Source: Myxococcales bacterium (GTDB lineage: Bacteria; Myxococcota_A; Polyangia; Palsa-1104; SHYY01). Taken from it: a stretch of DNA of 59,248 nucleotides. This document shows positions 7,358 through 53,266 of the stretch, in pieces; positions within the stretch are counted from its first letter, which is position 1, and the number at the start of each line of letters is the position of its first letter. A program made the position numbers and the translations under genes. Under the pieces are notes generated by a model. The model had not been told where the DNA came from. It ran no database searches and was given only the letters and a program-made list of their open reading frames with translations. The stretch spans positions 1 to 59,248 of the forward strand of contig JAHFDT010000003.1 in the NCBI GenBank assembly GCA_023248875.1. Direction: 5' to 3'.

Positions 7358-7407
7358 AGGTAAACGTTCACGGGGTGAGAAATGGAACGTTGTGATTTTG
7401 GGCACTT

Positions 7408-7482: not shown

Positions 7483-7505
7483 TGTGAACGGAGACAAATA
7501 AAACA

Positions 7506-8594: not shown

Positions 8595-8597
8595 CGG

Positions 8598-10577: not shown

Positions 10578-10591
10578 CGAGGAGGCCACCT

Positions 10592-37162: not shown

Positions 37163-37516
37163 ATGAATTTTAGTCGGGCCGATGGCGCCGCCGCCGAGCG
37201 GATCGCTGCCGAGTATCTCGCCCAGCAAGGCTACAAGATTCTCCACCGGAATTTTACCTGCCGGCTGGGCGAGATCGATCTGGTGTGCGAAGAGGGGCCG
37301 ATCCTCTGCTTTGTCGAAGTCCGGATGCGGCGGGTCGATCGCTATGGCGTAGCGCTCGAGACCATCACGCCCAAGAAGCTAGAGCGGATCGTGCGTACGG
37401 CGCGCTACTTTCTTATGAAGCACAACATGGAGGAGCGCGAGTGCCGGTTTGACGTGGTGACGATTCAGGGGGGAGAGGCGCCCGAGCTGGCCCGCAACGC
37501 TTTTCAGGCGGATTAG
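37163..37516 (+). CDS. yraN: YraN family endonuclease-like protein
   Basis: GEIDLV, FVEVR, CRFDVV. Confidence 0.9.
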   Translation: MNFSRADGAAAERIAAEYLAQQGYKILHRNFTCRLGEIDLVCEEGPILCFVEVRMRRVDRYGVALETITPKKLERIVRTARYFLMKHNMEERECRFDVVTIQGGEAPELARNAFQAD

Positions 37517-37941
37517 TTGCAAGACGGTGTCGGACTGGGGCTCGGGCACTGCGCCGGTGTGATTACGCCACCATCGGCGTCGGAGTTGTAACCGCACAGA
37601 AGATCCGACTTGCACACGCAGGCCTTCTTGCAGGCGAATGGACCCGCCACCGCAGCGACCGCACAGACGAAATTGGAATCGCACAGCCCATCGGCGGGCT
37701 TGCCGATGGTCGCAGGCTTGCAATCGTCATCGGTCTTGCATTCGGTGATGGTGCACACCGCACGCGGCGGATCGCCCATCGCCTTCGGCTGGTGGATGAG
37801 GCACAGGCGGGTCAAGCATTCGAGTGAGGGCGAGGCGATCTGGATGCCCGTACCACCATCGGTACCGACGCACTTGCGCCCGATCCCCTGGTCAGCACAG
37901 CCAGTAAACGCCACCAGCGCGAGGGCGCACATCCATTTCAT
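37513..37941 (-). CDS. Cys-rich lipoprotein, possibly CglC/GltK-like
   Basis: Lipobox FTGC; IGRKC...ECLTRLC...CT..EC pattern reminiscent of myxobacterial CglC (from memory, unverified). Confidence 0.55.
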   Translation of the reverse strand: MKWMCALALVAFTGCADQGIGRKCVGTDGGTGIQIASPSLECLTRLCLIHQPKAMGDPPRAVCTITECKTDDDCKPATIGKPADGLCDSNFVCAVAAVAGPFACKKACVCKSDLLCGYNSDADGGVITPAQCPSPSPTPSCN

Positions 37942-38012: not shown

Positions 38013-38728
38013 CTACTTCACCTGCTCGGCAGCGCCCCCGGCGGGTTCGGGGCCGAGCAGCGCATCATCGGTCATCTTGTTGAAATCCTCGAGGGTCGCC
38101 ACCGGAATGCCAATCGGTCCGACCCGTTCGTTACCCGCATGGATGAGGCGCGGCGCCAGCACCTCCGGCCCCTTGGCGCGACGGACGCCCATCGCGGTCG
38201 CGAGATTCTGCCCCGGGGCGAGCTCGGCATGCACCAGCCACCACATGCAGCCGCCGTGGACGACATTGGTGCCCGGCATTCGATATTTATGCTGCCCATC
38301 ATAGAGCACGGTTCCCTCGGGCACATATTGCTTAAGCATTCCGTCCCAGTGTTTGAACTCAGGCTCGTCCATCGCCAACGTGAGGTAGTGGCCGCCTTGG
38401 GATGATCTGCGACCGGTGTCTCCGGCCCCGAGTAGTGGTGCAGGGCTAGATGGGGGCGAACGCTGACCGCAGGGTGAACCGCATCGGTCCCGGAGGCACG
38501 CCACACGATGGCGCCATGGTCGAGTTGAAAGGTGGCGAGGAAGTCGTCGTGCGTCTTGGGCAGGACTGGCACGAAATGGCGCTCGATTTGACGGGTGCCA
38601 AGGTCGCGCTGCACCACGCGAACGGGCAGGCCATGTTTGTCGGCATAGGTTTTGGTGAGGGCCGCTAACTTGGGTGGAGCAGCCAGGGCTATGCTGCTCA
38701 GCAGCGATATGCAAAGAGCTCGCCTCAT
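38013..38728 (-). pseudogene. Array paralogue F, frameshifted by a 1-nt deletion near 38400
   Basis: N-half in ORF 38072..38728 (to ...PVADH), C-half in ORF 38013..38714 (QGGHYLTL...EQVK); one extra base at the GGG 38399-38401 would join them. Confidence 0.85.
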
Positions 38729-38817
38729 AGCTTCACCTGCTCCGCCGCGCCGCCGGCGGGTTCGGGGCCGAGCAGCTCATCGTCGGTCAGCTTCTTGAAG
38801 GCCGCGATGGAGGGCAC
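38693..38817. repeat. 125-bp exact direct repeat (second copy 40116-40240) spanning array gene junctions
   Basis: E/F junction identical to C/D junction, offset 1423 bp. Confidence 0.9.
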
Positions 38818-39447
38818 TGGGATGCCGATCGGGCCGACGAGCTCATTGCCGGCGTGGATGAGGCGGGGCGCCAGCACTTCGGGCCCCTTGGCACGACGCA
38901 CGCCCATCGCGGTTGCGAGGTTGAGCCCGTCGGCTAACTCGGCATGCACCAGCCACCACATGCAGCCGCCATGGACCACGTTGGTGCCCGGCATGCGATA
39001 GCGCTCTCGCCCCTCGAAGAGGTTACCGCTGTCGGGGGCCCACTTCTTGATGAAGTCACGCCAATGGGCGTACTGCTTCGGGTCGATGGCCAGGGTGAGG
39101 TAGTGGCCTCCCAGGTCGTGTCCGGGGGCCGACATGTTGGGCGGCGCCTGGAAATGCAGCGTTTCGCCGGGACGAATGCTGACCGCGGGGTGGATGGGAT
39201 CTCCAATGCTGGCGCGCCACACCACTGCACCCTTCTTGACGTTGAAGGTCGCCAAGAAATCGTCGTGGGTCTTCTCCAAGACGGGAACGAAGTGGCGCTC
39301 GATCTCGCGGGTTCCGAGGTCGCGCTGGACCACGCGCACGGGCAGACCGTTCTTCTCCGCATAGGCCTTGGCCAGCGCCGCGAGTGTGGGCGGGTCGGCC
39401 GCTGCAACGCGGCTCGCCACCACCCAGAGGATCAGCAACCGCCTCAT
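38725..39447 (-). CDS. Array paralogue E, secreted protein with H-x11-H and HGGCMWW motifs
   Basis: Signal peptide; shared constant N- and C-blocks; ATGA overlaps on both sides. Confidence 0.9.
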   Translation of the reverse strand: MRRLLILWVVASRVAAADPPTLAALAKAYAEKNGLPVRVVQRDLGTREIERHFVPVLEKTHDDFLATFNVKKGAVVWRASIGDPIHPAVSIRPGETLHFQAPPNMSAPGHDLGGHYLTLAIDPKQYAHWRDFIKKWAPDSGNLFEGRERYRMPGTNVVHGGCMWWLVHAELADGLNLATAMGVRRAKGPEVLAPRLIHAGNELVGPIGIPVPSIAAFKKLTDDELLGPEPAGGAAEQVKL

Positions 39448-40151
39448 GGCTTCACCTGCTCAGCAGCGCCGCCTGCGGGCTCGGGGCCGAGCAGCTCGTC
39501 GTCGGTCATCTTGTTGAAGGCCTCGAGGTTGGGCACGGGAATGCCGACCGGGCCCACGCGCTCGTTCCCCGCGTGGATCAGACGTGGTGCCAGCACTTCC
39601 GGCCCTTTGGCGCGGCGGACCCCCATCACCGTGGCGAGGTTTTGTCCTGGCGCCAGCTCGGCATGCACCAGCCACCACATGCAGCCGCCGTGGACCGTGG
39701 TCGTGCCGGGCATTCGGTACGTAGCATTCCCGGTATGGAGGACGCCCCCCTCGGGGACGTGCTGCCTGATCATCCCCTGCCAATGGTTGAACTCCGGCTC
39801 GTCGACCGCCAGGGTCAGGTAGTAGCCGGCGCCGTGCCCCGGGAACGCTTTGGCATAGAAGTCGAGGACCATGCCAGGACGAATGCCGATGGTCGGGTGC
39901 ACGTGATCGCCTGCGCTGCGCCACACGATCGCACCGCTGCCCACGTGAAAGGTGGCGAGGAAGTCGTCATGCGTGTTGGGAAGCACCGGAACGAAATGGC
40001 GCTCGATCTGGCGCGTGCCGAGGTCGCGCTGCACCACACGAACGGGCAGGCCATGCTTATCGGCGTAGGCCTTGGTAAGCGCGGCCAACTTGGGCGGCGG
40101 CGCGGCGAATGCCAAGCTGCTCAGCAGCGATATGCAAAGAGCTCGCCTCAT
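39444..40151 (-). CDS. Array paralogue D
   Basis: As above; H-x11-D variant. Confidence 0.9.
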   Translation of the reverse strand: MRRALCISLLSSLAFAAPPPKLAALTKAYADKHGLPVRVVQRDLGTRQIERHFVPVLPNTHDDFLATFHVGSGAIVWRSAGDHVHPTIGIRPGMVLDFYAKAFPGHGAGYYLTLAVDEPEFNHWQGMIRQHVPEGGVLHTGNATYRMPGTTTVHGGCMWWLVHAELAPGQNLATVMGVRRAKGPEVLAPRLIHAGNERVGPVGIPVPNLEAFNKMTDDELLGPEPAGGAAEQVKP

Positions 40152-40861
40152 AGCTTCACCTGCTCCGCCGCGCCGCCGGCGGGTTCGGGGCCGAGCAGCT
40201 CATCGTCGGTCAGCTTCTTGAAGGCCGCGATGGAGGGCACGGGAATGCCGATCGGGCCGACGAGCTCATTGCCGGCGTGGATGAGGCGCGGCGCGAGAAC
40301 CTCGGGCCCTTTAGCGCGCCGAACGCCCATCGCCGTGGCTAGGTTGAGCCCTTTGGCAATCTCCGCATGCACGAGCCACCACATGCAGCCGCCATGGACG
40401 ACCTTGGTACCCGGCATGGTGTAGTTGGTCACGTAGATCTGCCCTTCGTCGGGCGCCCACTTCTTGATGAAGCGATGCCAGTGGTCGAACTGCTTTTTAT
40501 CGACTGCCAAAGTGAGGTAGTAGCCACCTGCATCGTGCGCCGCGACTGGCGTTGCGGGAAGGTGCATGTAGTGCAGGGCCAAGTTGGGATGGATGCTGAC
40601 CGCTGGGTGGACCGGATCCTGGCCGAGTGCACGCCATACGATCGCGCCCTTGTCGATCTGAAAGGTGGCGAGGAAGTCGTCGTGCGTCTTGGGCAGGACC
40701 GGCACAAAGTGGCGCTCGATTTGGCGGGTGCCGAGGTCGCGCTGGACCACGCGCACCGGCAGTCCATGTTTCTTGGCGTAGGCTTGGGCCAGGGCCGCGA
40801 GCTTGGGCGGCGCGGCGAAGGCCAGGCTGCTCAGCAGCGATAAGCAGAGAGCGCGGATCAT
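40148..40861 (-). CDS. Array paralogue C
   Basis: As above. Confidence 0.9.
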   Translation of the reverse strand: MIRALCLSLLSSLAFAAPPKLAALAQAYAKKHGLPVRVVQRDLGTRQIERHFVPVLPKTHDDFLATFQIDKGAIVWRALGQDPVHPAVSIHPNLALHYMHLPATPVAAHDAGGYYLTLAVDKKQFDHWHRFIKKWAPDEGQIYVTNYTMPGTKVVHGGCMWWLVHAEIAKGLNLATAMGVRRAKGPEVLAPRLIHAGNELVGPIGIPVPSIAAFKKLTDDELLGPEPAGGAAEQVKL

Positions 40862-40922
40862 TGTTTCACCTGCTCGGCAGCGCCGCCCGCGGGCTCGGGG
40901 CCGAGCAGCTGGTCATCGGTCA
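40797..40922. repeat. 126-bp exact direct repeat (second copy 41516-41641) spanning array gene junctions
   Basis: B/C junction identical to A/B junction, offset 719 bp. Confidence 0.9.
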
Positions 40923-41580
40923 GTTTTTTGAACTCTTCGATGGTCGCCACGGGAATGCCGATCGGGCCGACGAGCTCATTGCCGGCGTGGATGAGGCGCG
41001 GCGCCAGCACCTCCGGCCCCTTGGCGCGCCGCACGCCCATCGCCGTGGCGAGGTTCAGGTTGGGCGCGATGTGGGCGTGGACGAACCACCACATGCAGCC
41101 GCCGTGGAGGGTGCCGCCATTCTCCTTCTGGAAGCTGGGGCCGCCGTTCCAGGGAGTCTGCCCCTGTGTGGCGGCGATGTGCTTATCGAGGAACTGCTCA
41201 TAGTGGGCAACCTGCTCTGGGGTGAGCGCCAGGGTAAGGTATTGGCCACCGATCGCATGGGGCATGACATCGGCTGACTTGCGTTTGAAATAGGAGATCG
41301 AATAGCCGGGTTGGATGGTCAGCTCGCCATGGACCTTGTCGTTGTTGGTCCGCCAGAGGATGGCCCCCTTGCCGGACTGAAACGTAGCGAGGAAATCGTC
41401 ATGGGTGGCGGGCAGCACGGGCACGAAGTGGCGCTCGATTTGGCGGGTGCCGAGATCGCGCTGCACCACGCGAACGGGCAGACCGTGCTTGTCGGCATAG
41501 ACCTTGGTGAGCGCGGCGAGCTTGGGCGGCGCGGCGAAGGCCAGGCTGCTCAGCAGCGATAAGCAGAGAGCGCGGATCAT
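40858..41580 (-). CDS. Array paralogue B (most divergent centre)
   Basis: As above; H-x11-S variant. Confidence 0.9.
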   Translation of the reverse strand: MIRALCLSLLSSLAFAAPPKLAALTKVYADKHGLPVRVVQRDLGTRQIERHFVPVLPATHDDFLATFQSGKGAILWRTNNDKVHGELTIQPGYSISYFKRKSADVMPHAIGGQYLTLALTPEQVAHYEQFLDKHIAATQGQTPWNGGPSFQKENGGTLHGGCMWWFVHAHIAPNLNLATAMGVRRAKGPEVLAPRLIHAGNELVGPIGIPVATIEEFKKLTDDQLLGPEPAGGAAEQVKQ

Positions 41581-42320
41581 TGTTTCACCTGCTCGGCAGC
41601 GCCGCCCGCGGGCTCGGGGCCGAGCAGCTGGTCATCGGTCATTTTGTTGAAATCCTCGATCGTCGCCACCGGGATGCCAATCGGACCGACGCGCTCGTTG
41701 CCCGCATGGATGAGGCGGGGCGCCAGCACCTCCGGCCCCTTGGCACGGCGAACGCCCATCGCGGTAGCAAGGTTGAGATTGGGGGCGAGCTCGGCGTGGA
41801 CCAGCCACCACATGCAGCCGCCGTGGATGATGTTGGTCCCCGGCATTTTGTAAGTCAGGCCCCCCATGGAGAGCGTCTTGTCTCCACCCACATGCGGCTT
41901 GAGCATCCCCTCCCAGTGTTTGACCTCCGGTTCGTCGACCGCCAGGGTCAGGTAATGGCCGCCCTGTAGGTGGGGGAAGACGGCCTGGGCGGCAGCCGGC
42001 GATCGGGCTGGCGAATAGTAATGGAGTGCTTGGCCGGGGCTGAGGCTGATCACGGGGTGAACCGCGTCGCGGCTCGCCCGCCAGACGATCGCTCCCTGGC
42101 CGATTTGGAAAGTATTCAGGAAATCGTCATGGGTGGCGGGCAGCACCGGTACGAAATGGCGCTCGATCTGGCGCGTGCCGAGATCGCGCTGGACTACCCG
42201 CACCGGCAGCCCGTGCTTGTCGGCATAGACCTTGGTGAGCGCGGCGAGCTTGGGCGGCGCGGCGAGGGCCGCGCTGCTGGCGAGAGAGAGCAGGACCAGA
42301 AGCGAGCGCCTCATGGCCAT
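41577..42320 (-). CDS. Array paralogue A
   Basis: As above; AAGGAG RBS, 5 bp downstream of the CoA-transferase homologue. Confidence 0.9.
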   Translation of the reverse strand: MAMRRSLLVLLSLASSAALAAPPKLAALTKVYADKHGLPVRVVQRDLGTRQIERHFVPVLPATHDDFLNTFQIGQGAIVWRASRDAVHPVISLSPGQALHYYSPARSPAAAQAVFPHLQGGHYLTLAVDEPEVKHWEGMLKPHVGGDKTLSMGGLTYKMPGTNIIHGGCMWWLVHAELAPNLNLATAMGVRRAKGPEVLAPRLIHAGNERVGPIGIPVATIEDFNKMTDDQLLGPEPAGGAAEQVKQ

Positions 42321-42325: not shown

Positions 42326-43846
42326 TTATTGAGCGGCGGGAGGCGCTGCCACCACCGGCAGCCCCTCGATAAGCTTGGCGTGCTGCTCGGCTGTGACCAG
42401 CTGTCGCTTGAGTGCCTCGTCCGCCACGTCGCGGCGCATTTCAGCGGGTGCCAGCCGGATCGAGTGGTAGACGCTGCGGACCAATTTATCGAACTGTGCC
42501 TGCTGGAGGAGGCCGGCCTTCAGCGGCGCGGCGGCCAGCTCGGCACGCAGCACCGGATGCGCCACTCTCAACATTTCGTAGGTTCGCTGCGCATCCGAGA
42601 GCCCGCGCAGTTTACGCGTTGCGCCCCACTCGGTGACGATGTGGTCGACGTGCTCCTTCGGGGTGGTGACCACGTCCCCGTTGAGCTTGGGAACGATCGT
42701 CGAGCCGCCGTCCTTGTTGCGCGAGCGCAGCGCGAGAATGGCGAGCCCTTTCTTCGACAACGAGGCGCCCTCCATGAAGTCGGGCTGGCCGCCGGGGAAG
42801 CTGATGATCCGATCGCCGATCCGCTCAGCGTTGACATTGCCGGTGAAGTCGACCTCGAGCGCGGTGTTGATGGCGCGCATGCGCGGCTGGGCAGCGATAT
42901 TGGCTGGGTCGTTGACTTCGCCAGTGGTCGCCATGCGGATCTTCGGGTTGTTGCCGGCCAGGCCGTAGAGTGCGTTCGTGCCATGGAGGAAGCTGAAGAC
43001 CGCCTCCTTGACCGCCGGCTTGTCGCCCACCATGAGCTCGCGTACCCAGTCGGAGCCCATTTCGCTCCAGATGCGCATCTTCCGCTTCTGCTGGAGCGCC
43101 GCGCCAACGCCATTGAGCGAGTTGCCGATGCCGACCTGGATGGTGGTGCGCAGGCGGTTCGGCACGAGACGCGCAATGTGGCTGGCGATCGCCTTTTCGG
43201 GCGCGCCCGGCTGGATGCCGTTGTGCTCCGAGAGGATGCCGCCGCCGTCGATCACCGCAGTGAGCTCGTCATATTTGATGCGGTTGCCGTAGGTGTGGGC
43301 GACGTTGGGGTTCACTTCCGCGATGATGCGGCCGCCGCGCGCCTGCGCCGCGCGCAGGGCCATCAGCGTCAGATCGCCCGCCGAACCGAGGCTAACGTAG
43401 CCATCTTTATCGGGCGGGCTCACGCGGACCACCACGGTATCGATCGGCATTTCGCCCGACTGGATCTTCTTGCCCAAATTGAACAGCGAGGCGCGGTGCA
43501 GCGTGGCCGTGCCATCTTTGGCGGCCTGGCGGTTTTGCGGCGAAACGAATAGCAGATTGGGGTGCCACTTGTCCGCCACCTTGGCATCGAAGTTCTGCGA
43601 CGTAGCAAAGGTCGACATGTAGTAGACGTTGGTGCGGTGGGGTCGCGCGAGCGCGGTGGCTCGCATCGCCGGGACCAGATTGGAGGGCATGGCCGAGCCG
43701 GTGGCGAAGAAGACATGGTTGCCCATCTCTTTGGCGGCATCCCCGATCGAAAGCTTCTTCGGTGCGGCGGAGGCTCGTGGCAAAAGAGCCAGTGCGGAGA
43801 GCACCAAAAGGAGCGGGCGGAGGCGTCGGTTAGCGGAAAGGGACAT
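42326..43846 (-). CDS. Acetyl-CoA hydrolase/transferase family protein (4-hydroxybutyrate CoA-transferase-like) with predicted signal peptide
   Basis: VSPPDKDGYVSLG, IAEVNPN, TIQVGIG, WSEM (catalytic Glu position), AINTALEVDFTG, GGQPDF, IVTEWG; N-terminus MSLSANRRLRPLLLVLSALALLPRASA-APKK. Confidence 0.88.
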   Translation of the reverse strand: MSLSANRRLRPLLLVLSALALLPRASAAPKKLSIGDAAKEMGNHVFFATGSAMPSNLVPAMRATALARPHRTNVYYMSTFATSQNFDAKVADKWHPNLLFVSPQNRQAAKDGTATLHRASLFNLGKKIQSGEMPIDTVVVRVSPPDKDGYVSLGSAGDLTLMALRAAQARGGRIIAEVNPNVAHTYGNRIKYDELTAVIDGGGILSEHNGIQPGAPEKAIASHIARLVPNRLRTTIQVGIGNSLNGVGAALQQKRKMRIWSEMGSDWVRELMVGDKPAVKEAVFSFLHGTNALYGLAGNNPKIRMATTGEVNDPANIAAQPRMRAINTALEVDFTGNVNAERIGDRIISFPGGQPDFMEGASLSKKGLAILALRSRNKDGGSTIVPKLNGDVVTTPKEHVDHIVTEWGATRKLRGLSDAQRTYEMLRVAHPVLRAELAAAPLKAGLLQQAQFDKLVRSVYHSIRLAPAEMRRDVADEALKRQLVTAEQHAKLIEGLPVVAAPPAAQ

Positions 43847-43888
43847 GGGTACCCTCGGCCGCATACCATTCGCGGCGCCTCTCCTCTA

Positions 43889-43905
43889 CGCAATGGCCAT
43901 GCCAA
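43889..43905 (-). promoter_or_regulatory. Putative sigma54 -24/-12 promoter
   Basis: Minus strand TTGGCATGGCCATTGCG fits TGGCAY-N5-TTGC, ~43 bp upstream of the ATG at 43846. Confidence 0.6.
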
Positions 43906-43991
43906 GGGAAAGGGCTGCAAAGAGCCGGTTTTTCCGTTCCTGGCCTGGCCAGTCGAGCTGCCATGGCCGGCGGGAATGGCTGCTATTTTCC

Positions 43992-44020
43992 TTGAACCCC
44001 TCTCGCCCAACAATTATGCT
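43992..44020 (+). promoter_or_regulatory. Possible sigma70 promoter of glt operon
   Basis: TTGAAC, 17-bp spacer, TATGCT. Confidence 0.5.
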
Positions 44021-44055
44021 TCCGCTTCCTCGGGAATCCGACCGAAAGGGAGACC

Positions 44056-45705
44056 ATGGACCTTCGTCGACTGGGCGGAATGGCTGTCATTTTTGCACTG
44101 CTTCTTCCTGCGCTCGCGGATGCAAAAAAGAAGACCAAGCCGGAGGAGGGGGGCGAAACCATGACCTTCACGCCCGAGGAGACGGGCGCGGCCAAAGCCA
44201 AGCGGGCGGCGGTGATCGATGAGAAGGCGGCCGCGGGAACCGCTTCGAAGGTGCTCGATAGCGCCCTCAAGCTGTACGAGAAAGAGGACTACTATTCGGC
44301 CACCATCGGGTTGAACAAGGTGATGGAGGGTCAGACCACCGACGATGAGATCAATCGTCAGCGCGCCGAATTCTTTATGGGCAAGGCGCTCTTCAATATG
44401 GGCTACTACTCGGCGTCGCTCTCCTATTTCGACCGCATCGTCCAGCGGGGGGGCGAGCACCACTACTACGCCAAAACGCTGCAGTGGCTGGCATCGCTGT
44501 CGCAAAAGCTGCCCGAGTCGGCGGGCGTGCTCGATAAGATCGGCAAGTACACGCGCGAGGATCTCGACCAGCCGGCGCTCGAATCGGTGCGGGACCAGCT
44601 CTTTTTTCTACTGGGCCGCTACCACTACACGAAGGGCAATTTCAAAGAGGCGGTGGGGCTGTTTCAGGCGCTGCCCGAGGCGAGCGAATTCTACGCCCGC
44701 GCCAAGTTTTTCGAAGGCATCACCTACGTGCGCCAGTACCAGGCGCAGCCCGCTGCCGAGGCCTTCAAGGCGATCTTGCGCAAAGCCAAGGAGCACCCCG
44801 ATAAGGCCACCCAGGAGTTCGAGGAGCTGGCCAACATTTCCTTGGCGCGCACCTTTTATTCCCTATCGCAGTTCGACAAGGCGGTGAAGTATTTCGACCG
44901 TGTGCCGACCGAATCGGCCGACTGGTTGGCGTCGCTGTTCGAGTCGGCCTGGGCGCAGTTCCAGATCGACGGCGACTCGAAGGCGCTCGGCAATATCCAT
45001 TCGATCAACGCGCCATTTTTCGAGAACGAATTCTATCCCGAGTCGCTGATTTTGAAGGCGGTCATCTACTTCCAACGCTGCAACTACGAGCTGGCGATGG
45101 CGGCGGTGGCGGAGTTCAACGAGACCTATCCGGGGCTGAAGAAGGACATCGAAAAGGTAATCAACAAGTACCCGGACAACGCGGCTTTTTACAAGTATGT
45201 GCTCCGGATCCGCCGCGGCGAATCGGGGCTACCCGACCGTGTGCAGCGCGCGGCCGAGGGGGCGCTGTCGGACAAGACGCTGGTCAAGACGCTCGACTAT
45301 GTCGCCGAGCTCGACCGCGAGCTGCACCAGGTGGAGAAATCAGACCCGGCCTGGAAGTCGACGGCCATCGCTGGCAACATCTTGCAGGATCTGACGCTAC
45401 AGCAGTCCCTGGCGCAGAACGATGCCGGCACCATGGCACGTGATCGCCTCAAGCGGCTCTCGACGGAGATCCAGGAGCTGGTGAAGCAGGCGCTCAAGAT
45501 CGAGTACGAAACGCTGAATGCGCAAAAGGGCGTGCTGGAGGCGTCGCTGCGGAGCGAGCAGTCGGTCGCGAGCGGCACCGCGCGCAAGAATGCCGAGGTG
45601 GTCGCCGATGATGAGCACGAGAAGTGGCCCTTCGACGGCGAGTATTGGCAGGACGAGCTCGGGTACTATAAGTCCCGCATCGTCAACAAGTGCTCGGCCA
45701 AGTGA
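44056..45705 (+). CDS. gltC: Adventurous gliding motility TPR protein GltC-like
   Basis: Signal peptide, TPRs, C-terminal DDEHEKWPFDGEYWQDELGYY motif. Confidence 0.8.
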   Translation: MDLRRLGGMAVIFALLLPALADAKKKTKPEEGGETMTFTPEETGAAKAKRAAVIDEKAAAGTASKVLDSALKLYEKEDYYSATIGLNKVMEGQTTDDEINRQRAEFFMGKALFNMGYYSASLSYFDRIVQRGGEHHYYAKTLQWLASLSQKLPESAGVLDKIGKYTREDLDQPALESVRDQLFFLLGRYHYTKGNFKEAVGLFQALPEASEFYARAKFFEGITYVRQYQAQPAAEAFKAILRKAKEHPDKATQEFEELANISLARTFYSLSQFDKAVKYFDRVPTESADWLASLFESAWAQFQIDGDSKALGNIHSINAPFFENEFYPESLILKAVIYFQRCNYELAMAAVAEFNETYPGLKKDIEKVINKYPDNAAFYKYVLRIRRGESGLPDRVQRAAEGALSDKTLVKTLDYVAELDRELHQVEKSDPAWKSTAIAGNILQDLTLQQSLAQNDAGTMARDRLKRLSTEIQELVKQALKIEYETLNAQKGVLEASLRSEQSVASGTARKNAEVVADDEHEKWPFDGEYWQDELGYYKSRIVNKCSAK

Positions 45706-45731
45706 GGGCGCAGATGAAACTAGCGAAAACA

Positions 45732-45803
45732 CCGCGCGGGGAGCGCGCGGCAGGGGGAGGCTCGAGCGAGCTTGGATCGCTGGAGGGGGACGGGAAGGTC
45801 CCC
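45732..45803. repeat. Three-hairpin intergenic element, copy 2
   Basis: CCGCGCG-N5-CGCGCGG (45732-45750), imperfect CTCGAGCGA/TCGCTGGAG stem, GGGGAC-GGGAAG-GTCCCC (45786-45803). Confidence 0.85.
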
Positions 45804-45812
45804 GAGTATGCC

Positions 45813-45863
45813 GAGCTTGGGTACTACAAATCGCGCATCGTCAACAAGTGCTCGGCCAAGTGA
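45813..45863 (+). repeat. 51-bp duplicate of gltC 3' end (45655-45705)
   Basis: Encodes the same ELGYYKSRIVNKCSAK-stop; 47/51 identical, four third-position synonymous differences. Confidence 0.95.
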
Positions 45864-45877
45864 GAGGTTAGGTTCCG

Positions 45878-48800
45878 ATGAATCGAGTTGCCTTCGGGAG
45901 CACCCTTTTGTGGGTAGCCGTCGCCACCGCTGTTCCTCCTAAATACACCAAAAAAGAGGCGTCGGTGACGTCGCAGCAGACCGCGCTCACCAAGCCGGCG
46001 CAGCGGGCCAAAGAGGAAAAACAGCGGCCCACCATCGATGCTTCCGATGTATTCGGCGGCGTGGGTGAGCAGCTCAAAGCGGTCACAGATCAGCAGATCA
46101 AAGTGATGCAGCGCCTCATCGAGAACACCGGTGACGACGATCCGGAAAAGCCCGACTATCATTTCCGCATCGCGGAGCTCTACGCGCAGCAGGAGCACTA
46201 CTACAGCTTCCGCGCCCGCGAGCTCGACCAAAAGATCTTCGAAGCGGTGCAGGCGAACAAGGCGGCGGTGGCCGAGCAGTTCAAGAAGCAGCAGACCGAT
46301 TACGAAAACCGCGAGAAAACTTGGCTCAAGGCCGCGGTCAAGGAGTACCTGAAGGTCACCGAGAATCCCAAGTTCAATGGCTACAAGCGCATGGACGAGG
46401 TGCTGTTCTACCTCGCCTTTCTTTTGACGCAGCAGAAGCGCGAAGATCTGGCGCGACCGATCTTCAAGCGCCTCATCAAGGACTATCCCGATTCGAAGTA
46501 CATCCCCGATGCACTGCTCTCCTTCGGGGAGTACTACTTCGAGCAGAAGGACATCGAGAATGCGCTGCGTTTTTACGACAAGGTGCTGCAGTATCCGCAA
46601 TCGCGCGTCTTTGGCTACGCGCTCTATAAGAAGGGTTGGTGCTACCTCAACCTGCAGGACTTCAAATCGGCCCTGCAGATTTTCGAGAGGGTGATCCTCG
46701 AAACCAAAGTCGACAAGAAGGACACCAACAAGCTATCGCTTTTGAAAGAGGCGAAGAAGGATTCGGTGCGCGCCTACTCGCAGATTTCGTCGGCGCCGCC
46801 CGACAAGGCGTGGCCCTATTTTCAGCGCATCGGCGGCGATTTTGCGCCGACCATGCTCGAGCAGCTGGGGGAGCTCTACAACGCGCAGGGCAAATTCCCC
46901 GAGAGCATCGTGATCTATCGGCAGCTCATCAAGCTCAACCCCACTTCGCCCAAGCTCTGTTCGTGGCAGGAGGAGATCCTGCGCAACACACTGTCGAAGA
47001 CCGGTTCGCGCGCTACCCCCGAGGCGGTGCAGGAGCTCGAGCGCCTATCGGCGGTGCTGGAAAAGTTCAAGACCATGGCGGGCGTGAAGAGGGAGGCGGT
47101 CGAGGAGTGCCGCGATAACACCGCTGGCTCGCTGCGCGAGCTCGCGACGACCTGGCACAAAGAGGCGCAGAAGACCAACGTCAAGGAGACCTACGCGCTC
47201 GCCCAGTCGCTCTACAAGGAGTACATCACGAAGTTTCCCGAGGAGAAGGATGTCTACCCGATGACCTTCTACTACGGCGAACTCCTGTTCAAGTTGGAGA
47301 AGTTCTGCGATTCGGCGCCGGTCTATACCAACGTTGTCACGATGAACGGGGGCAACGACGCGCGCTATCGCAACGAGTCGGCCTACGCGGCGGTCATTTC
47401 GTGGAAGAACTGCCTCGCGGTTGACGACCAGGAGCATGTCGACGAGAGCCAGCGCAAGGGGGTGGTGAAGGACGTTCGCGACCAAAAGAAGGGCAAGGGC
47501 AAGGAGAAGGACCCGGAGAAGAGCCGGGCCGAGGAGCTGGCGAAGTTCAAGCCGCTCGAGATCCCGGAGAAGTGGCACAAGATGCTCGACGCCTTCGACA
47601 CCTACATCAAGTACGTGCCGAATTCTCCCGAGCTTCCGACCATCCGCTACCGTAAAGCGCGCGTTTTCTACGAATACAACCACTTCGAAGATGCGGCGAA
47701 GTTTTTCCGCGAGGTGGTCGAAAACCATCGCGATTCGGAGCTCGCGCCGGTAGCGGCCAACCTGCTTTTCGATTGCGATAACATTCTGCGGCAGGCGCAA
47801 AGCGGCACCTTTGAGCAGCTGCGCGGCGATACCAAGAAGTACTGCAGCTGGCCCGATCTCATCAAGGATGGCGACTTCGTCAAGCAGTGCGACACCATCA
47901 CGGCGAATCTGACCCGCATGGAGATCGAGGACTTCGAGCACAAGGGGGAAAAGGACATCAAGTACTATCGCAAGGCCGCCGATATGTACTGCAAGCTGGC
48001 GGAGGAGCACCCTGAAGACCCGAAGGTGGACGAGGTCTGGTACAACTGCGCGATCGATTACGAGCGCGCCAAGCAGCTTGGCAAGGCGATCGAAACGCGC
48101 ATCAAATTGATCAAGTTGAAGCCTGTCAGCATACTCGCGCAAAAGTCGGTCTTTTTCCTGGGGCGCGCCTACCGCGACATCGCCGCCTACGACAAGGCGG
48201 CGGAGCAGTTCGAGACCTTTGCCGTCAAGTATCCGGGGGAGAAGGCCAAGCCGGGCGACCGCAGTGCGCCCGACGCTGCGACCGCGCTCTATTCCGCGTC
48301 GATCTATCGGCGCGGCCTCGGCGAGGTGGAAAAGGCGGTCGAGGATGCTAAGAAGTTCGTCGATCTTTACGGCAATCGCGGTAAGGAGAACGAAGACAAG
48401 GCGGCGGGCGTCTTCTTTGGTCTGGCGCAGATCTATGAGCAGCAGAAGGATCGCGTGAAGCTGGCGAAGCATCTGAACGACTATCTGAAGGCCTGGGGGC
48501 AAAAGGGTGGCGCGGATCGACAGATCATCGCCAATGTGAAGCTGGGCGAGCTCGCCTGGGCCGATAGCTGCCCGGTGGCGGGGGTCAACGGCGCCTGCAT
48601 CGAGGTGACCCGCGTGCGTGCTTCGTCGGCGACGCGCGTGGCAGAAAGAGCGAGCAAGGGCAAGAAGGGCAAGAAGCTGAAGAAGAAGGGCGCGGTGCTG
48701 CCGGCGCAGTGCGGGCCGGAGACCAAATCGAAGATCACGCTGCATGAGCGCAAGCCGGCGCTGATCAAGCAGGCGCAGGACTACTTTGCTGCAGCGATGA

Positions 48801-49516
48801 AGGAGTATGCGAACGGCGCGGCAGTGAAGAAGATCCCCGGCAAAGACGAGGCGGAGCGGGCGGCGCGGGCCGATTCGATGATGTACTACGTGGCCGAGGC
48901 GCGCTCGATGGAGGGCAATCGGGAGTATGAGAAGCTGATTGGAATGAAGATCCCGGACAAGCTCGACTTTACGCCCGTCGATGTCAGCGCGTCGAAGGCC
49001 AAGCAGGCCAAGGACAAGAAGCGGCTCGACGACAACAGCAAGAAGTTTAAGACCTGGTACGAGACCAAGATCAAGCAGGTCGATACGGCGCAGAAGATCT
49101 ACCAGCAGGTGATTCTGTTCAAGCAGGCCCACTGGGCGATCGCAGCGGCGGCACGAATCGGTCAGATCTTCCAGGACTTCTCGGGTCAGCTCTACACTGC
49201 ACCGGTGCCGAAGGCAGGCAAGGCGCCGGAGGGGATGTCGCAGGAGGAGTTCGACCAACTCTTCCATGACTCCTACTGCGACCAGATGACCGATACCGCC
49301 GAGCCGCTCGAGACCAAGGCGGTTGAGGGGCTTTCGACCTGTCTCAAGAAGTCGACCGACCTGCAGTGGTTCAACGAGTGGTCGGCGCTGTGCGAGGCGG
49401 AGCTCAACCAGATCAAGCCGCAGGAGTACCCGCTCGCGTCGGAGATCCGCGGCGTGCCTGGCTACTTCGATAAACGGCCCGATTCGGCGTCCTTGATTAC
49501 GGAGCTCAAACAATGA
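45878..49516 (+). CDS. gltD: Large periplasmic TPR gliding protein GltD/AgmU-like
   Basis: 1212 aa, signal peptide, many TPRs, C-terminal WAIAAAARIG...EPLE.KA...FNEWS; upstream of gltE/F/G-like genes. Confidence 0.8.
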   Translation: MNRVAFGSTLLWVAVATAVPPKYTKKEASVTSQQTALTKPAQRAKEEKQRPTIDASDVFGGVGEQLKAVTDQQIKVMQRLIENTGDDDPEKPDYHFRIAELYAQQEHYYSFRARELDQKIFEAVQANKAAVAEQFKKQQTDYENREKTWLKAAVKEYLKVTENPKFNGYKRMDEVLFYLAFLLTQQKREDLARPIFKRLIKDYPDSKYIPDALLSFGEYYFEQKDIENALRFYDKVLQYPQSRVFGYALYKKGWCYLNLQDFKSALQIFERVILETKVDKKDTNKLSLLKEAKKDSVRAYSQISSAPPDKAWPYFQRIGGDFAPTMLEQLGELYNAQGKFPESIVIYRQLIKLNPTSPKLCSWQEEILRNTLSKTGSRATPEAVQELERLSAVLEKFKTMAGVKREAVEECRDNTAGSLRELATTWHKEAQKTNVKETYALAQSLYKEYITKFPEEKDVYPMTFYYGELLFKLEKFCDSAPVYTNVVTMNGGNDARYRNESAYAAVISWKNCLAVDDQEHVDESQRKGVVKDVRDQKKGKGKEKDPEKSRAEELAKFKPLEIPEKWHKMLDAFDTYIKYVPNSPELPTIRYRKARVFYEYNHFEDAAKFFREVVENHRDSELAPVAANLLFDCDNILRQAQSGTFEQLRGDTKKYCSWPDLIKDGDFVKQCDTITANLTRMEIEDFEHKGEKDIKYYRKAADMYCKLAEEHPEDPKVDEVWYNCAIDYERAKQLGKAIETRIKLIKLKPVSILAQKSVFFLGRAYRDIAAYDKAAEQFETFAVKYPGEKAKPGDRSAPDAATALYSASIYRRGLGEVEKAVEDAKKFVDLYGNRGKENEDKAAGVFFGLAQIYEQQKDRVKLAKHLNDYLKAWGQKGGADRQIIANVKLGELAWADSCPVAGVNGACIEVTRVRASSATRVAERASKGKKGKKLKKKGAVLPAQCGPETKSKITLHERKPALIKQAQDYFAAAMKEYANGAAVKKIPGKDEAERAARADSMMYYVAEARSMEGNREYEKLIGMKIPDKLDFTPVDVSASKAKQAKDKKRLDDNSKKFKTWYETKIKQVDTAQKIYQQVILFKQAHWAIAAAARIGQIFQDFSGQLYTAPVPKAGKAPEGMSQEEFDQLFHDSYCDQMTDTAEPLETKAVEGLSTCLKKSTDLQWFNEWSALCEAELNQIKPQEYPLASEIRGVPGYFDKRPDSASLITELKQ

Positions 49517-50799
49517 CCCGCGCTATCCTGATCACTCTTTTCATGGCAGGTGTGGCGAGTGCCAAGAGTGAGCCCAAGTCGGTGGCCCCGGACTTTGCCA
49601 AGCTGGTAGTGAAGGTGGCGGAGGCGCGCAAGGCGGTGCCAGGGGGCAAGCTCACCGCCGATCTGAGCGTGCGCTTCGCCAGCGATTTCATGTCGCTAGG
49701 AAAGGAGGGCGCTTCGGCCGAGTCCTACTTTAACGCCGGGGTGCTGTCGGCCCAGGCGGGGGATACCGCGGCCGCGGAACGCGCCTATCGCGCGGCGATC
49801 GATGCCAACACCAACTTTGCGCCGGCCCACGCCAATCTCGGGGAGCTCGCCTACAAGGCGGGCAAGATCGACCTGGCGCAGCAGGAGTTTGAGACGGCGC
49901 TCAAGCTCGATCCCAAGAATGTGGCGGCCTACAACGGCAGCGCCCTCTTGCTGTTCGAAAAGGCGGCGGCGACCAACAACGCGGTGCTGCTCAAGGAGGC
50001 GGTCGGCAAGTTGCGGCGCGCACTGGCGGTCGACGCCGAATCGATGCCCGCCTATTCGCTGCTCGCCCTCATCTATTATGCGCTGGCCGAGGCCGACCCG
50101 TCGAAGCTCGATCTGGCCAAGCTCGTGTGCGAGCAGGGGCTCGAGGTCGATAAGGAGCATCCGCAGATCTACAACACGCTTGGGCTCATCTACCTCGAGC
50201 GCAAGAACGTGACGCTCGCGCTCCAGCAGTTTCGTAACGCGGTGAAGTACGATCCCAAGTACGTGGAGGCCCAGCTCAACATCGGCGCAATCACGCTTAA
50301 TGCGCGTGGGTATCAGGAGGCGGAGGCGGCGTTTAAAGCGGTGCTTGAGGCCAAACCAACGCTTGAGCAGCAGTTCGATGCCACGGTCGGGATGGGGGTG
50401 GCGCTGCGGGGGCAGCGGCGCGTCGATGAGGCGGAGCAGTGGTATGCCAAGGCCAAGGCACTTTCGCCGGGAGCCTGCGCGCTGTCCTACAACTTGGGGG
50501 TGCTCTACCAGGACTACAAGTCGGGGAACGAGGCCGATCAGACCAAGGCCAAGGGGCTGTTTCAGGAGTTTCTCAAGTGCGGCCAGGCGGATCCCGACAA
50601 GCTCAAGGATGGCGCTCGCCGGATCAAGGACATCGACGACTACTTCAAGGCACTGGTCGAGCAGAAGAAGCTGGAAGAGGAGAATCGCAAGCTGCAGGAA
50701 GAGGCGGAGAAGATGATGAAGCAGCAGCAGGAGCAGGAGCGGCTGCAGCAGCAACAGGCTTCGCCACCGCCCGCTCCGGGGCCGCCGGTCAAGAAATAG
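49513..50799 (+). CDS. gltE: TPR gliding protein GltE/AglT-like
   Basis: Signal peptide, TPRs, GVALRGQ, YNLGVLY, Gln/Glu coiled-coil and Pro-rich tail. Confidence 0.75.
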   Translation: MTRAILITLFMAGVASAKSEPKSVAPDFAKLVVKVAEARKAVPGGKLTADLSVRFASDFMSLGKEGASAESYFNAGVLSAQAGDTAAAERAYRAAIDANTNFAPAHANLGELAYKAGKIDLAQQEFETALKLDPKNVAAYNGSALLLFEKAAATNNAVLLKEAVGKLRRALAVDAESMPAYSLLALIYYALAEADPSKLDLAKLVCEQGLEVDKEHPQIYNTLGLIYLERKNVTLALQQFRNAVKYDPKYVEAQLNIGAITLNARGYQEAEAAFKAVLEAKPTLEQQFDATVGMGVALRGQRRVDEAEQWYAKAKALSPGACALSYNLGVLYQDYKSGNEADQTKAKGLFQEFLKCGQADPDKLKDGARRIKDIDDYFKALVEQKKLEEENRKLQEEAEKMMKQQQEQERLQQQQASPPPAPGPPVKK

Positions 50800-50845
50800 T
50801 GGGAACCCTTGGGTTGCACGGTTGTCAAAGGCTAGGAGGATCCAG

Positions 50846-51112
50846 ATGAAGCGCGCGATTTTCGCCTCTTGGGTATTGCTTTCAGCTCCCCTGGGGGCGC
50901 AAAAGCCGGCCGCGACGCCGGCGCCAGCAGCCGCTGGGGTCAGCTACAAGCAGAAGACCGTCTACGACTTCGACGATGATGTGGTCGAGGGCGATCTGGT
51001 GCGACCCGACGGTGATTTTGTCGACACCCGCAAGGCGGCGAAGCACTCGTCGCTCATCAAGATGCGCGCGAACTTCATCCCTGAGATGCTCAAGTCGGCT
51101 GAAGATATCTAG
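50846..51112 (+). CDS. gltF: Gliding protein GltF/CglF-like
   Basis: YKQKTVYDFDDDVVEGDLVRPDG...HSSLIKMRANF. Confidence 0.85.
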   Translation: MKRAIFASWVLLSAPLGAQKPAATPAPAAAGVSYKQKTVYDFDDDVVEGDLVRPDGDFVDTRKAAKHSSLIKMRANFIPEMLKSAEDI

Positions 51113-51123
51113 GAGCCTTTCCG

Positions 51124-53265
51124 ATGCCCAATGGCGTGACGATCCCTCTCCAGTTTGAGATCTACAAAGGGGGCGAACTGGTTCGTACCGAGACCCTGAC
51201 CCAAGATGTCATCAAGGTCGGCAAGCTCTCCTCCTCGCATCTGCGGATCGAAGACGAGAATGTTTCGCGGATGCATGCGGTGATCGAAATCACCAGCCCG
51301 ACGGAGATTTCGATCATTGATCTGGGTTCATCCAAGGGAACGATCGTCAATGGGCAGAAGGTCAACAAGGGCCGCCTCAAATCGGGGGATGAGATTCTCC
51401 TCGGCAATACGCGTCTGGTGCTGACCGTCGGAGAGCCGGTGGCGGCTGCGGCGCAGGCGACGATCGTTTCGGCGCCGGCCCCGGTGCCCTCGCCCCTCCC
51501 AGCGCCGGTCGTCCCTCCTCCCCAGTATGCCCCCCCTCTATTGGCACCGCTCTCCCTGGAAGCGGTCGAAGTGCGCGATGGCTCGCAGGCCATCGAAGTG
51601 GTGGCGCTGTTCGAAAACGCCATCCTCGATACGCGCCACTACACCAACCCGGCCGCGGGCGATGTGCAGGGCAGCACCAAAGGGATCCTGGCCGGCGCTG
51701 CGGGTTCGCTGTTTGGCGCCTTCGTGTTGTTCGTGGTCGCCTGGTTTCAGGTCGATCGGCTCCAGCAGGTGCGCGAGGCGTGGGAGAAGGCCAATCCTGG
51801 CAAGGGCACCAATGAGTTTCCCATGCCCCACGAGGGGCCGTGGATGGATATCGTCGTGGCGGTGCTGCTGGTGTCGGGCCTTTCGCTTTTGATCTGGGGC
51901 CTGCTGCGCCTCTTCGAAGAGCGCCAGCCGCGCCACTTTACGATCGGCCCGGCCGCGGATGCACTGGTCAACGTCCCGGCGAATCTTGTGCCCACAGCAA
52001 ACTTTCCGCTGGTCCGCTCGACCGGCAGCGCCTATGAGCTGCTCTTTACCCCGGCGATGCAGGGCGATGTTACCCTCGCAGCGCGCGTGCATACGCTGCA
52101 GGAGCTGGTGGCCCAGGGGCGCGCCCCGGCTTCGAGTGCGGTGGCGGGCGCCCATGCGTTTGCCATCCCCGAGGGCGCACGCGCGCGTGTCGACCTCGAC
52201 CAGGCGACCTTTCTGGTCAATTCGGTGGCGCCGCCGCGCCGCCATCCGGTGCCATTCAAACTCGATTGGGATCTTTTGGCGCCGCTGGTCGGCTGCTTCG
52301 TCGGTGGCGCCCTGTTCCTCGGGATGATTTTTTCAATTCCGCCCGATCCCAAATCACTGTCGCTCGATGCCTTTTTGAACGACCAGCGCTTCGCCAAATT
52401 CGTCATCAAGCCGCCCGAGGAGAAGGAGGAGCAGATCCCCGAGTGGCTCAAGAAGAAGGGGCCCGATGAGGCGGGTGGCAAGGGCAAGCGCCACAAGGGC
52501 GAAGAGGGCAAGATGGGCAAGAAGACCTCCAAAAACAAGGCGGGTCTCTATGCGCTCAAGGGGCCGAAAGACAACACCGACCCGCATCTGGCCAAGCAGC
52601 TGGCCACCGAGGCGGCGCAAAAGGCGGGCGTACTCGGGATCTTGAAGGCCAACGAGGGATCGCACCTGGCCTCGATCTTTGGGCGCGACTCGGCGCTCGG
52701 TAACGATGCGGAGAATGTGCTCGGCGGGCTGGTCGGAACGCAGGTGGGCGAGGCGTATGGCGTCGGCGGCCTGGGGCTCGTCGGATCGGGGCGCGGTGGA
52801 GGCGGCACGGGCGAAGGGACGATCGGTCTTGGCAATCTCGGAACCATCGGCAAAGGCGGCGGCGGTGGCTCGGGTTCAGGCTATGGCCGCGGAGCCGGCG
52901 GGCTCGGTGGGCGGCGCGCGCACGCCCCCGATGTGGTGCCCGGCACGGCGCAGGTGCGCGGCTCGCTGGATAAAGAGATCATCCGCCGCATCATCCGCCG
53001 CCATATCAACGAGGTGAAGTTCTGCTACGAGAAGGAGCTGACGAAAAACCAGAATCTTTACGGGCGCGTGATCATTCAGTTCACGATCGCCGGCACCGGA
53101 CAGGTGGTGGCCTCCCTGGTGCAGCAGTCGACCATGAACAACCCGCCGGTCGAGCAGTGCATCGCGGGTGCGCTGCGGCGTTGGGAGTTCCCGAAGCCGA
53201 ATGGCGGCGGCATCGTCATCGTCTCCTATCCCTTCGTTCTCAAGTCCGCCGGCGGGGAGGAATAG
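51124..53265 (+). CDS. gltG: GltG/PglI-like FHA + TM + Gly-rich linker + TonB-C protein
   Basis: FHA (IKVGK..VSRMHA..DLGSSKGT.VNG), TM segments, Gly-rich linker, GSLDKEIIRRII...CYE...WEFPKP..GG..IVSYPF. Confidence 0.85.
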   Translation: MPNGVTIPLQFEIYKGGELVRTETLTQDVIKVGKLSSSHLRIEDENVSRMHAVIEITSPTEISIIDLGSSKGTIVNGQKVNKGRLKSGDEILLGNTRLVLTVGEPVAAAAQATIVSAPAPVPSPLPAPVVPPPQYAPPLLAPLSLEAVEVRDGSQAIEVVALFENAILDTRHYTNPAAGDVQGSTKGILAGAAGSLFGAFVLFVVAWFQVDRLQQVREAWEKANPGKGTNEFPMPHEGPWMDIVVAVLLVSGLSLLIWGLLRLFEERQPRHFTIGPAADALVNVPANLVPTANFPLVRSTGSAYELLFTPAMQGDVTLAARVHTLQELVAQGRAPASSAVAGAHAFAIPEGARARVDLDQATFLVNSVAPPRRHPVPFKLDWDLLAPLVGCFVGGALFLGMIFSIPPDPKSLSLDAFLNDQRFAKFVIKPPEEKEEQIPEWLKKKGPDEAGGKGKRHKGEEGKMGKKTSKNKAGLYALKGPKDNTDPHLAKQLATEAAQKAGVLGILKANEGSHLASIFGRDSALGNDAENVLGGLVGTQVGEAYGVGGLGLVGSGRGGGGTGEGTIGLGNLGTIGKGGGGGSGSGYGRGAGGLGGRRAHAPDVVPGTAQVRGSLDKEIIRRIIRRHINEVKFCYEKELTKNQNLYGRVIIQFTIAGTGQVVASLVQQSTMNNPPVEQCIAGALRRWEFPKPNGGGIVIVSYPFVLKSAGGEE

Positions 53266-53266
53266 G

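Follow-up and report, generated by a model that had tools for sequence, protein, structure and literature searches.

Organization of the operon

The window analysed here is a whole stretch of 59,248 nucleotides (nt) of contig JAHFDT010000003.1 from a Myxococcales bacterium, and its subject is a minus-strand operon made up of a gene for a 4-hydroxybutyrate coenzyme A (CoA)-transferase-like protein and six copies of a small gene. The CoA-transferase-like gene (42326–43864) is the first of the operon and encodes 512 amino acids (aa), or 506 aa from the start of P0166. Behind it, six head-to-tail paralogues, A to F, occupy 38013–42320 with a repeat period of 704–728 nt. Paralogue A (41577–42320) starts 5 nt past the stop of the CoA-transferase-like gene, behind AAGGAG, and can be read as 247 aa from the ATG at 42320 or as 245 aa (equal to P0001) from the ATG at 42314. 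As AAGGAG immediately precedes the first ATG, the second is the likelier start; residues are numbered below on the 245-aa form, and numbers in the 247-aa open reading frame (ORF) are higher by 2. The array continues with B (40858–41580, 240 aa), which has the most divergent centre, C (40148–40861, 237 aa), D (39444–40151, 235 aa), E (38725–39447, 240 aa), and F (38013–38728), and all five copy-to-copy junctions are ATGA stop/start overlaps. As read from the sequence, the CoA-transferase-like gene and the paralogues are one translationally coupled operon. Its presumed promoter region is the divergent intergenic region at 43865–44055, between the operon and a GltC-like gene, in which a consensus scan found no sigma-70-type site.

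The reading frame of copy F is broken between 38399 and 38408: residues 1–108 are encoded in one frame as far as 38408, and a second frame, from 38399, encodes the C-terminal part. This one-base shift leaves the motifs intact on either side of the break, and the copy would be either a pseudogene or an assembly error. By their central regions the copies alternate in subtype, with A, D, and F alike, C and E alike, and B apart, and a 78-nt stretch recurs within the array (38013–42320) at a spacing of ~1434 nt, which together suggest that the array grew by duplication of two-gene units.

An earlier note on this DNA had singled out 41800–42100 (minus strand, codons 74–174 of A), which contains GAIVWR, DAVH, His100, and HGGCMWW in the ORF numbering, and had read these as the triad pattern of circularly permuted NlpC/P60 (LRAT/HRASLS-like) enzymes. 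The motifs themselves are as described, since a sequence check found GA(I/V)(V/L)WR, D-x-(V/I)-H, and HGGCMWW in all six copies, and the residue 12 positions after the first His is His in A, C, E, and F, Asp in D, and Ser in B. In A, the codons lie at 42057–42059 (His88), 42021–42023 (His100), and 41814–41816 (Cys169), and the three residues are His86, His98, and Cys167 of the 245-aa form, whose mature part has a single Cys. A further motif, H-A-G-N, is encoded at 41697–41708 on the same strand and spans His205–Asn208 of the ORF, i.e. His203 and Asn206. Because the copies are paralogues and share descent, their agreement in these motifs counts as one observation rather than six.

A family of putatively exported proteins with one conserved cysteine

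A profile search of 1.84 billion representative proteins retrieved 119 members of the family at E ≤ 0.001 and 102 at E ≤ 1e-10, and all source names of family members are 'hypothetical protein'. The new domain family amounts to ~120 clusters at 50% identity, plus a sister clade of fused proteins described below. A hydrophobic N-terminal segment was found in 92 of 98 array-family members, the other six of which look truncated. From these sequences, the paralogues appear to be a family of exported ~24 kDa proteins with one conserved Cys. Neither Pfam nor NCBIfam has an entry for this family, and the PDB offers it no neighbour in sequence or structure. No match for the family was obtained by tblastn against plasmids and phages, or by PADLOC.

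Family members tend to share contigs. Two contigs, of 6220 and 6775 bases, carry six members each, and three further contigs, L003 (from a Polyangia metagenome-assembled genome), L001, and L002, hold three, at least three, and two, respectively, suggesting that tandem arrays are the rule. A 46-member tree unites the window copies with two orthologues from other contigs in a clade of 7 that has good support, and the L003 copies fall in a separate clade with their own relatives. Such lineage-wise clades suggest that the arrays expanded separately in each lineage.

Selection among A–E differs strongly along the protein. The ratio of nonsynonymous to synonymous differences per site (pN/pS) is 0.02 at residues 39–58 and 186–205 and 1.07–1.14 at residues 128–155, a fast-evolving segment just before the Cys helix. 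By region, the corresponding ratio of substitution rates (dN/dS) is 0.14 in the N-terminal part, 0.64 in the centre, and 0.11 in the C-terminal part. The synonymous component (pS) is 0.3–0.7 throughout, showing that the copies are old and not merely homogenized. We considered recent gene conversion as the origin of the conserved ends and ruled it out, as pS there is 0.3–0.5 with almost no amino-acid change. This pattern fits a scaffold kept constant by strong purifying selection and a centre that either varies freely or is pushed to vary.

Some members are much longer. A long Q/N-rich coiled-coil repeat is inserted between strand 209–215 and the C-terminal tail in P0074 (903 aa), P0088, P0093, P0096, P0084, P0106, P0090, and P0072, and in P0074 and P0072 the tail returns at the very end, after the insert, which suggests a stalk-like hairpin projecting from the domain. 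The tail itself, LLGPEPAGGAAEQVK, was considered as a sorting or cleavage signal. This was rejected, as the tail is internal in the fused proteins P0054 and P0183, is a high-confidence part of the modelled fold, and returns after the inserts in P0074 and P0072.

The CoA-transferase-like enzyme and its coupling to the family

The product of 42326–43864 matches PF13336 (E 1.7e-44, 151.9 bits, cut-off 23.7) and PF02550 (E 5.5e-6, 26.9 bits, cut-off 24), and aligns over its full length with the 4-hydroxybutyrate CoA-transferases 9vag (E 6.4e-51, the best PDB match) and 3gk7 (E 1.7e-47). The SEMG stretch around Glu268 corresponds to SEM in 3gk7 and TEM in 9vag, and GGQPDF to GGQVDF and GGQLDF in these structures. 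The Glu and GGQ are invariant in all 32 members of its clade and in all 44 fused proteins. Presumably this Glu has the catalytic role reported for AbfT. The enzyme thus keeps its putative catalytic Glu and is seemingly a competent CoA-transferase. Its clade is distinct, with the 31 other aligned members being 44–74% identical to the window enzyme and 500–566 aa long, and no NCBIfam equivalog-level identity could be assigned to the window enzyme, the best score being 121 bits against a cut-off of 674.8. All 32 members of the clade carry a hydrophobic N-terminal segment, compared with 17 of 76 more distant CoA-transferase homologues taken as a control.

The coupling of this enzyme to the Cys-protein family recurs outside the window. 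In L003, a CoA-transferase gene whose product is 73% identical to the window enzyme directly precedes three family copies. When the family hidden Markov model (HMM) was used to scan 120 CoA-transferase homologues, it matched eight, P0054, P0183, and P0118 at E 4e-84 to 1e-33 and five others at E 8e-8 to 0.02. The family domain is N-terminal in the fused proteins, and the CoA-transferase domain C-terminal. In P0054, the enzyme portion begins exactly at the mature N-terminus of the window enzyme, which suggests that its signal peptide has given way to a linker. When the N-domain of P0217, a distant fusion, was used as the query, 62 proteins of 546–788 aa were found, 61 of which carry PF13336, and comparison of the array family with the N-domains of fused proteins of ~750 residues by hhalign gave a probability of 99.4% (E 5.5e-22, 199 columns). 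Hydrophobic N-terminal segments are present in 43 of 44 fused proteins, and the only organism names attached to fused forms are Bdellovibrionales bacterium and Bacteriovorax sp. Across evolution, the two modules belong together, as adjacent genes in Polyangia and as one polypeptide in relatives.

Conservation of the motif residues

Conservation was counted in 121 full-length family members aligned to the family HMM. Cys167 is kept in 113, Arg52 in 119, Trp170 in 112, Arg190 in 109, Asn206 in 107, and Met168 in 105, and His203 (111/121) is the best-conserved His of the family. His173 is found in 71 members, with Asn in 35, and His164 in 31. Position 86, the first His of the motif noted in the array, is His in 95 members, Tyr in 16, and Phe in 5. 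The +12 position (residue 98) is far more mixed, with Ser in 22, His in 15, Ala in 13, Gly in 11, Leu in 10, Asn, Thr, and Phe in 8 each, and others in the remainder, and the next residue, position 99, is often aromatic (His 32, Tyr 30, Trp 18, Phe 12). Among the 26 members without His86, 19 retain both Cys167 and His203.

The fused sister clade sharpens this picture. At the position matching His86, all 44 aligned proteins have Tyr, and all of them have the Cys, the Trp, and R254. H267, the equivalent of His203, is kept in 42 of 44, and the equivalent of Asn206 in 28 of 44. The residues common to both clades are Arg52, Cys167, Trp170, Arg190, and His203, with Asn206 kept less strictly. The His-x11-polar pattern is a feature of this array and not of the family, and as the wider family does not keep the His pair and its first position is Tyr throughout the sister clade, the pair is not what the family uses for catalysis. 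Should the Cys act with a His, the alignments make His203, which follows the Cys, a better candidate than the His pair. The fused clade also has two extra, near-invariant Cys residues, at position 29 (40/44) and position 217 (43/44), the latter five residues before the conserved Cys222 in P-C-K-S-D-N-C, and these may form a disulfide or provide a second thiol.

Predicted structure and comparison with papain-like enzymes

Paralogue A was modelled by AlphaFold2 with a 46-sequence alignment, giving a mean predicted local distance difference test score (pLDDT) of 90.9, a predicted template modelling score (pTM) of 0.87, and no segment below 50. The predicted elements include strands 76–80, 88–92, 95–97, and 120–124, a helix at 128–138, and the Cys helix at 166–172. 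Cys167 is the second residue of this short helix and follows Gly-Gly at its N-terminus, in agreement with the proposal that an invariant Cys opens a helix. In the same model, His203 lies at the end of a helix together with Asn206, three residues further on. The excised centre (residues 72–218 of A, with 12 sequences from the window and L001–L003) was modelled poorly, with a pLDDT of 51.5. The ESM Atlas gave no usable match for whole A or for residues 155–245, and its own model had a pLDDT of 0.32.

Co-variation was analysed by mean-field direct coupling analysis of 121 sequences (effective number ~115, 13881 pairs, gap-filtered). The signal is weak and smeared after filtering and can be taken as a hint only. 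It pairs strand 76–80 with strand 209–215 and places strand 39–44 beside residue 216, so that the N- and C-terminal parts of A seem to form one sheet with the centre; the poor model of the excised centre fits this arrangement. Between the Cys helix and residues 75–100 the co-variation is weak (W169–A75 at rank 81, L171–P87 at rank 135, and G166–H86 at rank 404 of 13881), and between the Cys helix and residues 194–208, a segment that hardly varies, 2 of 195 pairs exceed 1.0.

We then compared the family with papain-like enzymes. Four of the five paralogues searched against Pfam at E ≤ 1 had no match, and the fifth had only a chance match to LPD22 (E 0.15). At E ≤ 10, 46 members matched no papain-like family, such as LRAT (PF04970), NLPC_P60, C92 (PF05708), or CHAP, but six unrelated families, one member each, with a best E of 0.075. 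NCBIfam gave no match for A and B. Profiles built from 46 and from 98 members found 17 and 13 PDB sequences, respectively, at E ≤ 10, none of them a cysteine peptidase or acyltransferase. For Escherichia coli YaeF, which is annotated as a peptidase of the C92 family of permuted NlpC/P60 enzymes, hhalign with the family profiles gave probabilities of 0.3% and 0.1%. Foldseek with the A model found 0 PDB matches at E ≤ 0.001 (best E 0.24); among the matches listed, template modelling scores were ≤ 0.19 and no entry was papain-like. BFVD likewise gave 0 matches at this threshold (best E 0.16). Of the features of a permuted papain-like active site, the Cys at a helix N-terminus is present, and we found neither a conserved catalytic His on a strand before the Cys (His86 is His in 95 of 121 members and Tyr in the whole sister clade), nor a third conserved polar residue on the neighbouring strand at +12, nor an alpha+beta core detectable against solved structures. 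According to a survey of papain-like enzymes (PMC10318531), the structural diversity of these proteins can exceed the reach of automated comparison; the fold test is therefore strong but not final.

Membership of the permuted NlpC/P60 group thus found no support from profiles, hhalign, or Foldseek, nor from the conservation of the first and second His. The broader suggestion made with it, of thiol or acyl chemistry with variable loops around the site, survives in general form, with the Cys kept in 113 of 121 members and in 44 of 44 fused proteins, a pN/pS of ~1.1 at residues 128–155, and a thioester enzyme as partner.

Residues 25–87 of A gave a weak profile match to SUMO2 that faded from E 0.001 with 46 sequences to E 0.006 with 98. 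The predicted order helix-strand-strand-helix-strand resembles the second part of a beta-grasp fold. A SUMO-like N-terminus was nevertheless dropped, as the match fades with the broader profile and Foldseek returned no ubiquitin-like structure, and the match is probably due to chance.

Surrounding genes

Downstream of copy F by 71 nt lies a 142-codon ORF (37513–37941, minus strand) with a lipoprotein-like N-terminus and many Cys, which has no match in Pfam, NCBIfam, or PADLOC and is absent downstream of the L001 and L003 arrays. Divergent from the operon, a gliding-motility-type cluster (44056–54097, plus strand) encodes a GltC-like protein (E 5e-104, below cut-off), a 1212-aa tetratricopeptide repeat (TPR) protein, a GltE-like protein, a GltG-like protein (E 1.6e-140, below cut-off), and a further TPR protein. 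The L001 and L003 arrays adjoin genes for a TPR protein and a class A penicillin-binding protein, with ExbB/ExbD-like genes further along. Elsewhere in the window, 25695–27983 encodes a homologue of the PorU-like type IX secretion sortase (E 3e-70, below cut-off), and 22–3063 a protein of 1013 aa that contains four choice-of-anchor D domains. A cluster of acyl-CoA metabolism genes at 6173–13128 resembles the ethylmalonyl-CoA pathway set and includes acyl-CoA dehydrogenase, the large and small parts of methylmalonyl-CoA mutase, 3-hydroxybutyryl-CoA dehydrogenase, methylmalonyl-CoA epimerase, and a crotonyl-CoA carboxylase/reductase that scores above its cut-off.

A possible role of the Cys proteins as partners of the enzyme

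CoA-transferases are textbook cytoplasmic enzymes, and those of family I work via acyl-Glu and Glu-thioester intermediates. Free CoA is not expected outside the cytoplasm, where neither ATP nor CoA is known to be present. As these intermediates are used and free CoA is not expected there, the Cys domain may supply the thiol. Our preferred reading, which we consider possible though still short of probable, is that the small proteins are thiol-bearing partner or specificity subunits of the CoA-transferase-like enzyme in acyl or thioester transfer outside the cytoplasm. Cys167 would take the part of the CoA thiol, accepting or carrying the acyl group, or would be the nucleophile of a second transfer step, with His203, Asn206, Arg52, and Arg190 as the best candidate helpers in place of the His-x11-His pair. 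The strongly constrained N- and C-terminal parts would provide a common scaffold and probably a docking surface, and the fast-evolving centre (residues 88–165) may give each copy a different substrate or target.

Several observations weigh against this proposal. Adjacency of the two genes was seen on only two contigs with enough flanking sequence, the window and L003, and the short contigs L001 and L002 have arrays but no CoA-transferase gene. Export is judged from hydrophobic N-terminal segments by a crude score with a background of 22% in the control set. Eight family members lack the Cys altogether. Moreover, Cys167 is lost in 8 of 121 members and His203 in 10, and the two are never lost together (0/121), which is not what a strict Cys-His dyad predicts. 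No gene for the phosphoribosyl-dephospho-CoA prosthetic group was found among the NCBIfam and Pfam matches of the window ORFs. Prediction of a complex between the mature CoA-transferase-like protein (28–506) and mature A (20–245), made without controls, scored 0.75, 0.00, and 0.00 in separate runs, a median of 0.00 against a mark of 0.32, which speaks neither for nor against binding.

Two alternatives would make the small proteins enzymes in their own right. As permuted NlpC/P60 enzymes of the LRAT/HRASLS type, they would act alone as thiol acyltransferases, phospholipases, or amidases through a His86-His98-Cys167 triad. The motif spacing in all six copies, the Cys at a helix N-terminus, a predicted order of elements that is not incompatible with a permuted papain-like core, and the weak co-variation that puts the Cys helix near residues 75–100 agree with this, as does the possibility, raised in PMC10318531, that papain-like folds evade automated comparison. 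The absence of any profile match at permissive thresholds, the hhalign probability of at most 0.3% with YaeF, and the lack of a Foldseek match in the PDB, which does hold LRAT-type structures, or in BFVD argue against it. It is also contradicted by the residues themselves: only 15 of 121 members have the +12 His, His86 is Tyr or Phe in 21, most members without His86 (19/26) still have Cys and His203, and the Tyr that takes its place in all 44 fused relatives stands in proteins that all keep the Cys. We therefore hold this identity to be quite improbable. A Cys167-His203-Asn206 hydrolase or transferase of a new fold, self-contained and acting on the product or substrate of the neighbouring enzyme instead of serving as its thiol acceptor, agrees better with conservation, as these three residues are kept in both clades. 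In the model, moreover, the Cys sits directly after Gly-Gly where a helix starts, as is often the case for nucleophiles with an oxyanion hole. However, the Cys is lost in 8 members and His203 in 10 without one shared loss among 121, His203 and Asn206 are three residues apart at a helix end, unlike papain-type geometry, and only 2 of 195 pairs between the Cys helix and residues 194–208 co-vary above 1.0, though that segment hardly varies. Such an enzyme is unlikely, in our judgement.

The Cys proteins could also be non-catalytic partners: recognition, specificity, or regulatory subunits that bind varied ligands or surfaces through the variable centre, in which the Cys is structural or a ligand of a soft metal within Cys-Met-Trp-Trp-x-x-His. 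A constant scaffold with a diversifying centre, the lineage-specific expansion seen in the clade of 7 formed by the window copies and two orthologues, and the variants with long Q/N-rich coiled-coil inserts (P0074, P0072, and P0090) are what such a role would lead one to expect. Periplasmic Cu(I) sites are typically built from Cys, Met, His, and Trp, and Met168 (105/121), Trp170 (112/121), and His173 (71/121) are kept to differing degrees. Yet a single free Cys in 113 of 121 members and 44 of 44 fused proteins would be unusual for a purely structural residue of an exported protein, His164 is present in 31 of 121 only, His173 is replaced by Asn in 35, and no metal-handling gene is among the Pfam and NCBIfam matches of the window ORFs. 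A purely binding role of this kind also seems rather unlikely. Finally, the array could encode immunity proteins or inhibitors, with the CoA-transferase-like protein as a secreted toxin, e.g. one that drains the acyl-CoA of prey, which the paralogues neutralize in this or in variant forms. A tandem, diversifying array beside an enzyme gene recalls orphan-immunity arrays, and the named organisms are from predatory groups. Stable fusion of both modules in more than 60 proteins is not expected of a toxin and its antidote, however, only a single, well-conserved enzyme gene (73% identity between genomes) goes with each array, and nothing was found by PADLOC; this explanation is very improbable.

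Returning to the Cys proteins as partners of the enzyme, we note a bolder form of that proposal, a CoA-independent acyl-transfer machine outside the cytoplasm, in which the CoA-transferase domain would load an acyl group on the Cys of its partner in place of CoA and the partner would deliver it to an external target chosen by the variable centre. This is a long shot. If the Cys domain does replace CoA, periplasmic or extracellular thioester chemistry would be carried out in a new way. The system is split and multiplied into arrays in Polyangia and fused in Bdellovibrionales and Bacteriovorax, and as the only organism names attached belong to predatory lineages, it could be a prey-modifying activity. 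Together with the fast-evolving centre of the Polyangia arrays, these names suggest a role towards varied external targets, possibly prey. A prey-modifying activity is described in the Introduction of PMC7511926.

Comparison with known systems

Literature searches returned nothing on exported CoA-transferases or on this family of Cys proteins. Because neither libraries nor literature place the family and its enzyme pairing, and because the model has no structural neighbour, we regard both as lying outside the known kinds. The result is a new domain family with a confident model and no structural neighbour, in which Cys167 offers an experimental handle.

Compared with LRAT/HRASLS (PLAAT) and C92 (YaeF/YiiX) enzymes, the family shares a late single Cys at the N-terminus of a helix and possibly thioester acyl transfer, and the array in the window additionally has two His residues 12 positions apart on an earlier predicted beta-hairpin. 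It differs from them in showing no profile or structural similarity, in not conserving the His pair, and in having a conserved His after the Cys. Its proteins are also roughly double an LRAT domain in size, and their N- and C-terminal segments seem to form one sheet with the centre.

The enzyme is closest to AbfT and the acetyl-CoA hydrolase/transferase family, with which it aligns over its full length and shares the SEM Glu and the GGQxDF motif. The window clade differs from that family in the signal-like N-terminal segments of all 32 members, in a C-terminal extension of ~60 residues, and in being coupled or fused to the Cys domain. Citrate lyase, with CitF, and malonate decarboxylase, with MdcA, each use a CoA-transferase homologue whose thiol substrate is bound to a protein instead of being free CoA. 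The pairs CitF and CitD and MdcA and MdcC thus resemble the proposed arrangement in mode of action only, in that a CoA-transferase homologue is paired with a small protein that supplies the thiol. In CitD and MdcC, however, the thiol is that of phosphoribosyl-dephospho-CoA attached to a Ser and the carriers are cytoplasmic, whereas here it would be the side chain of a Cys in putatively exported small proteins that are not homologous to those carriers.

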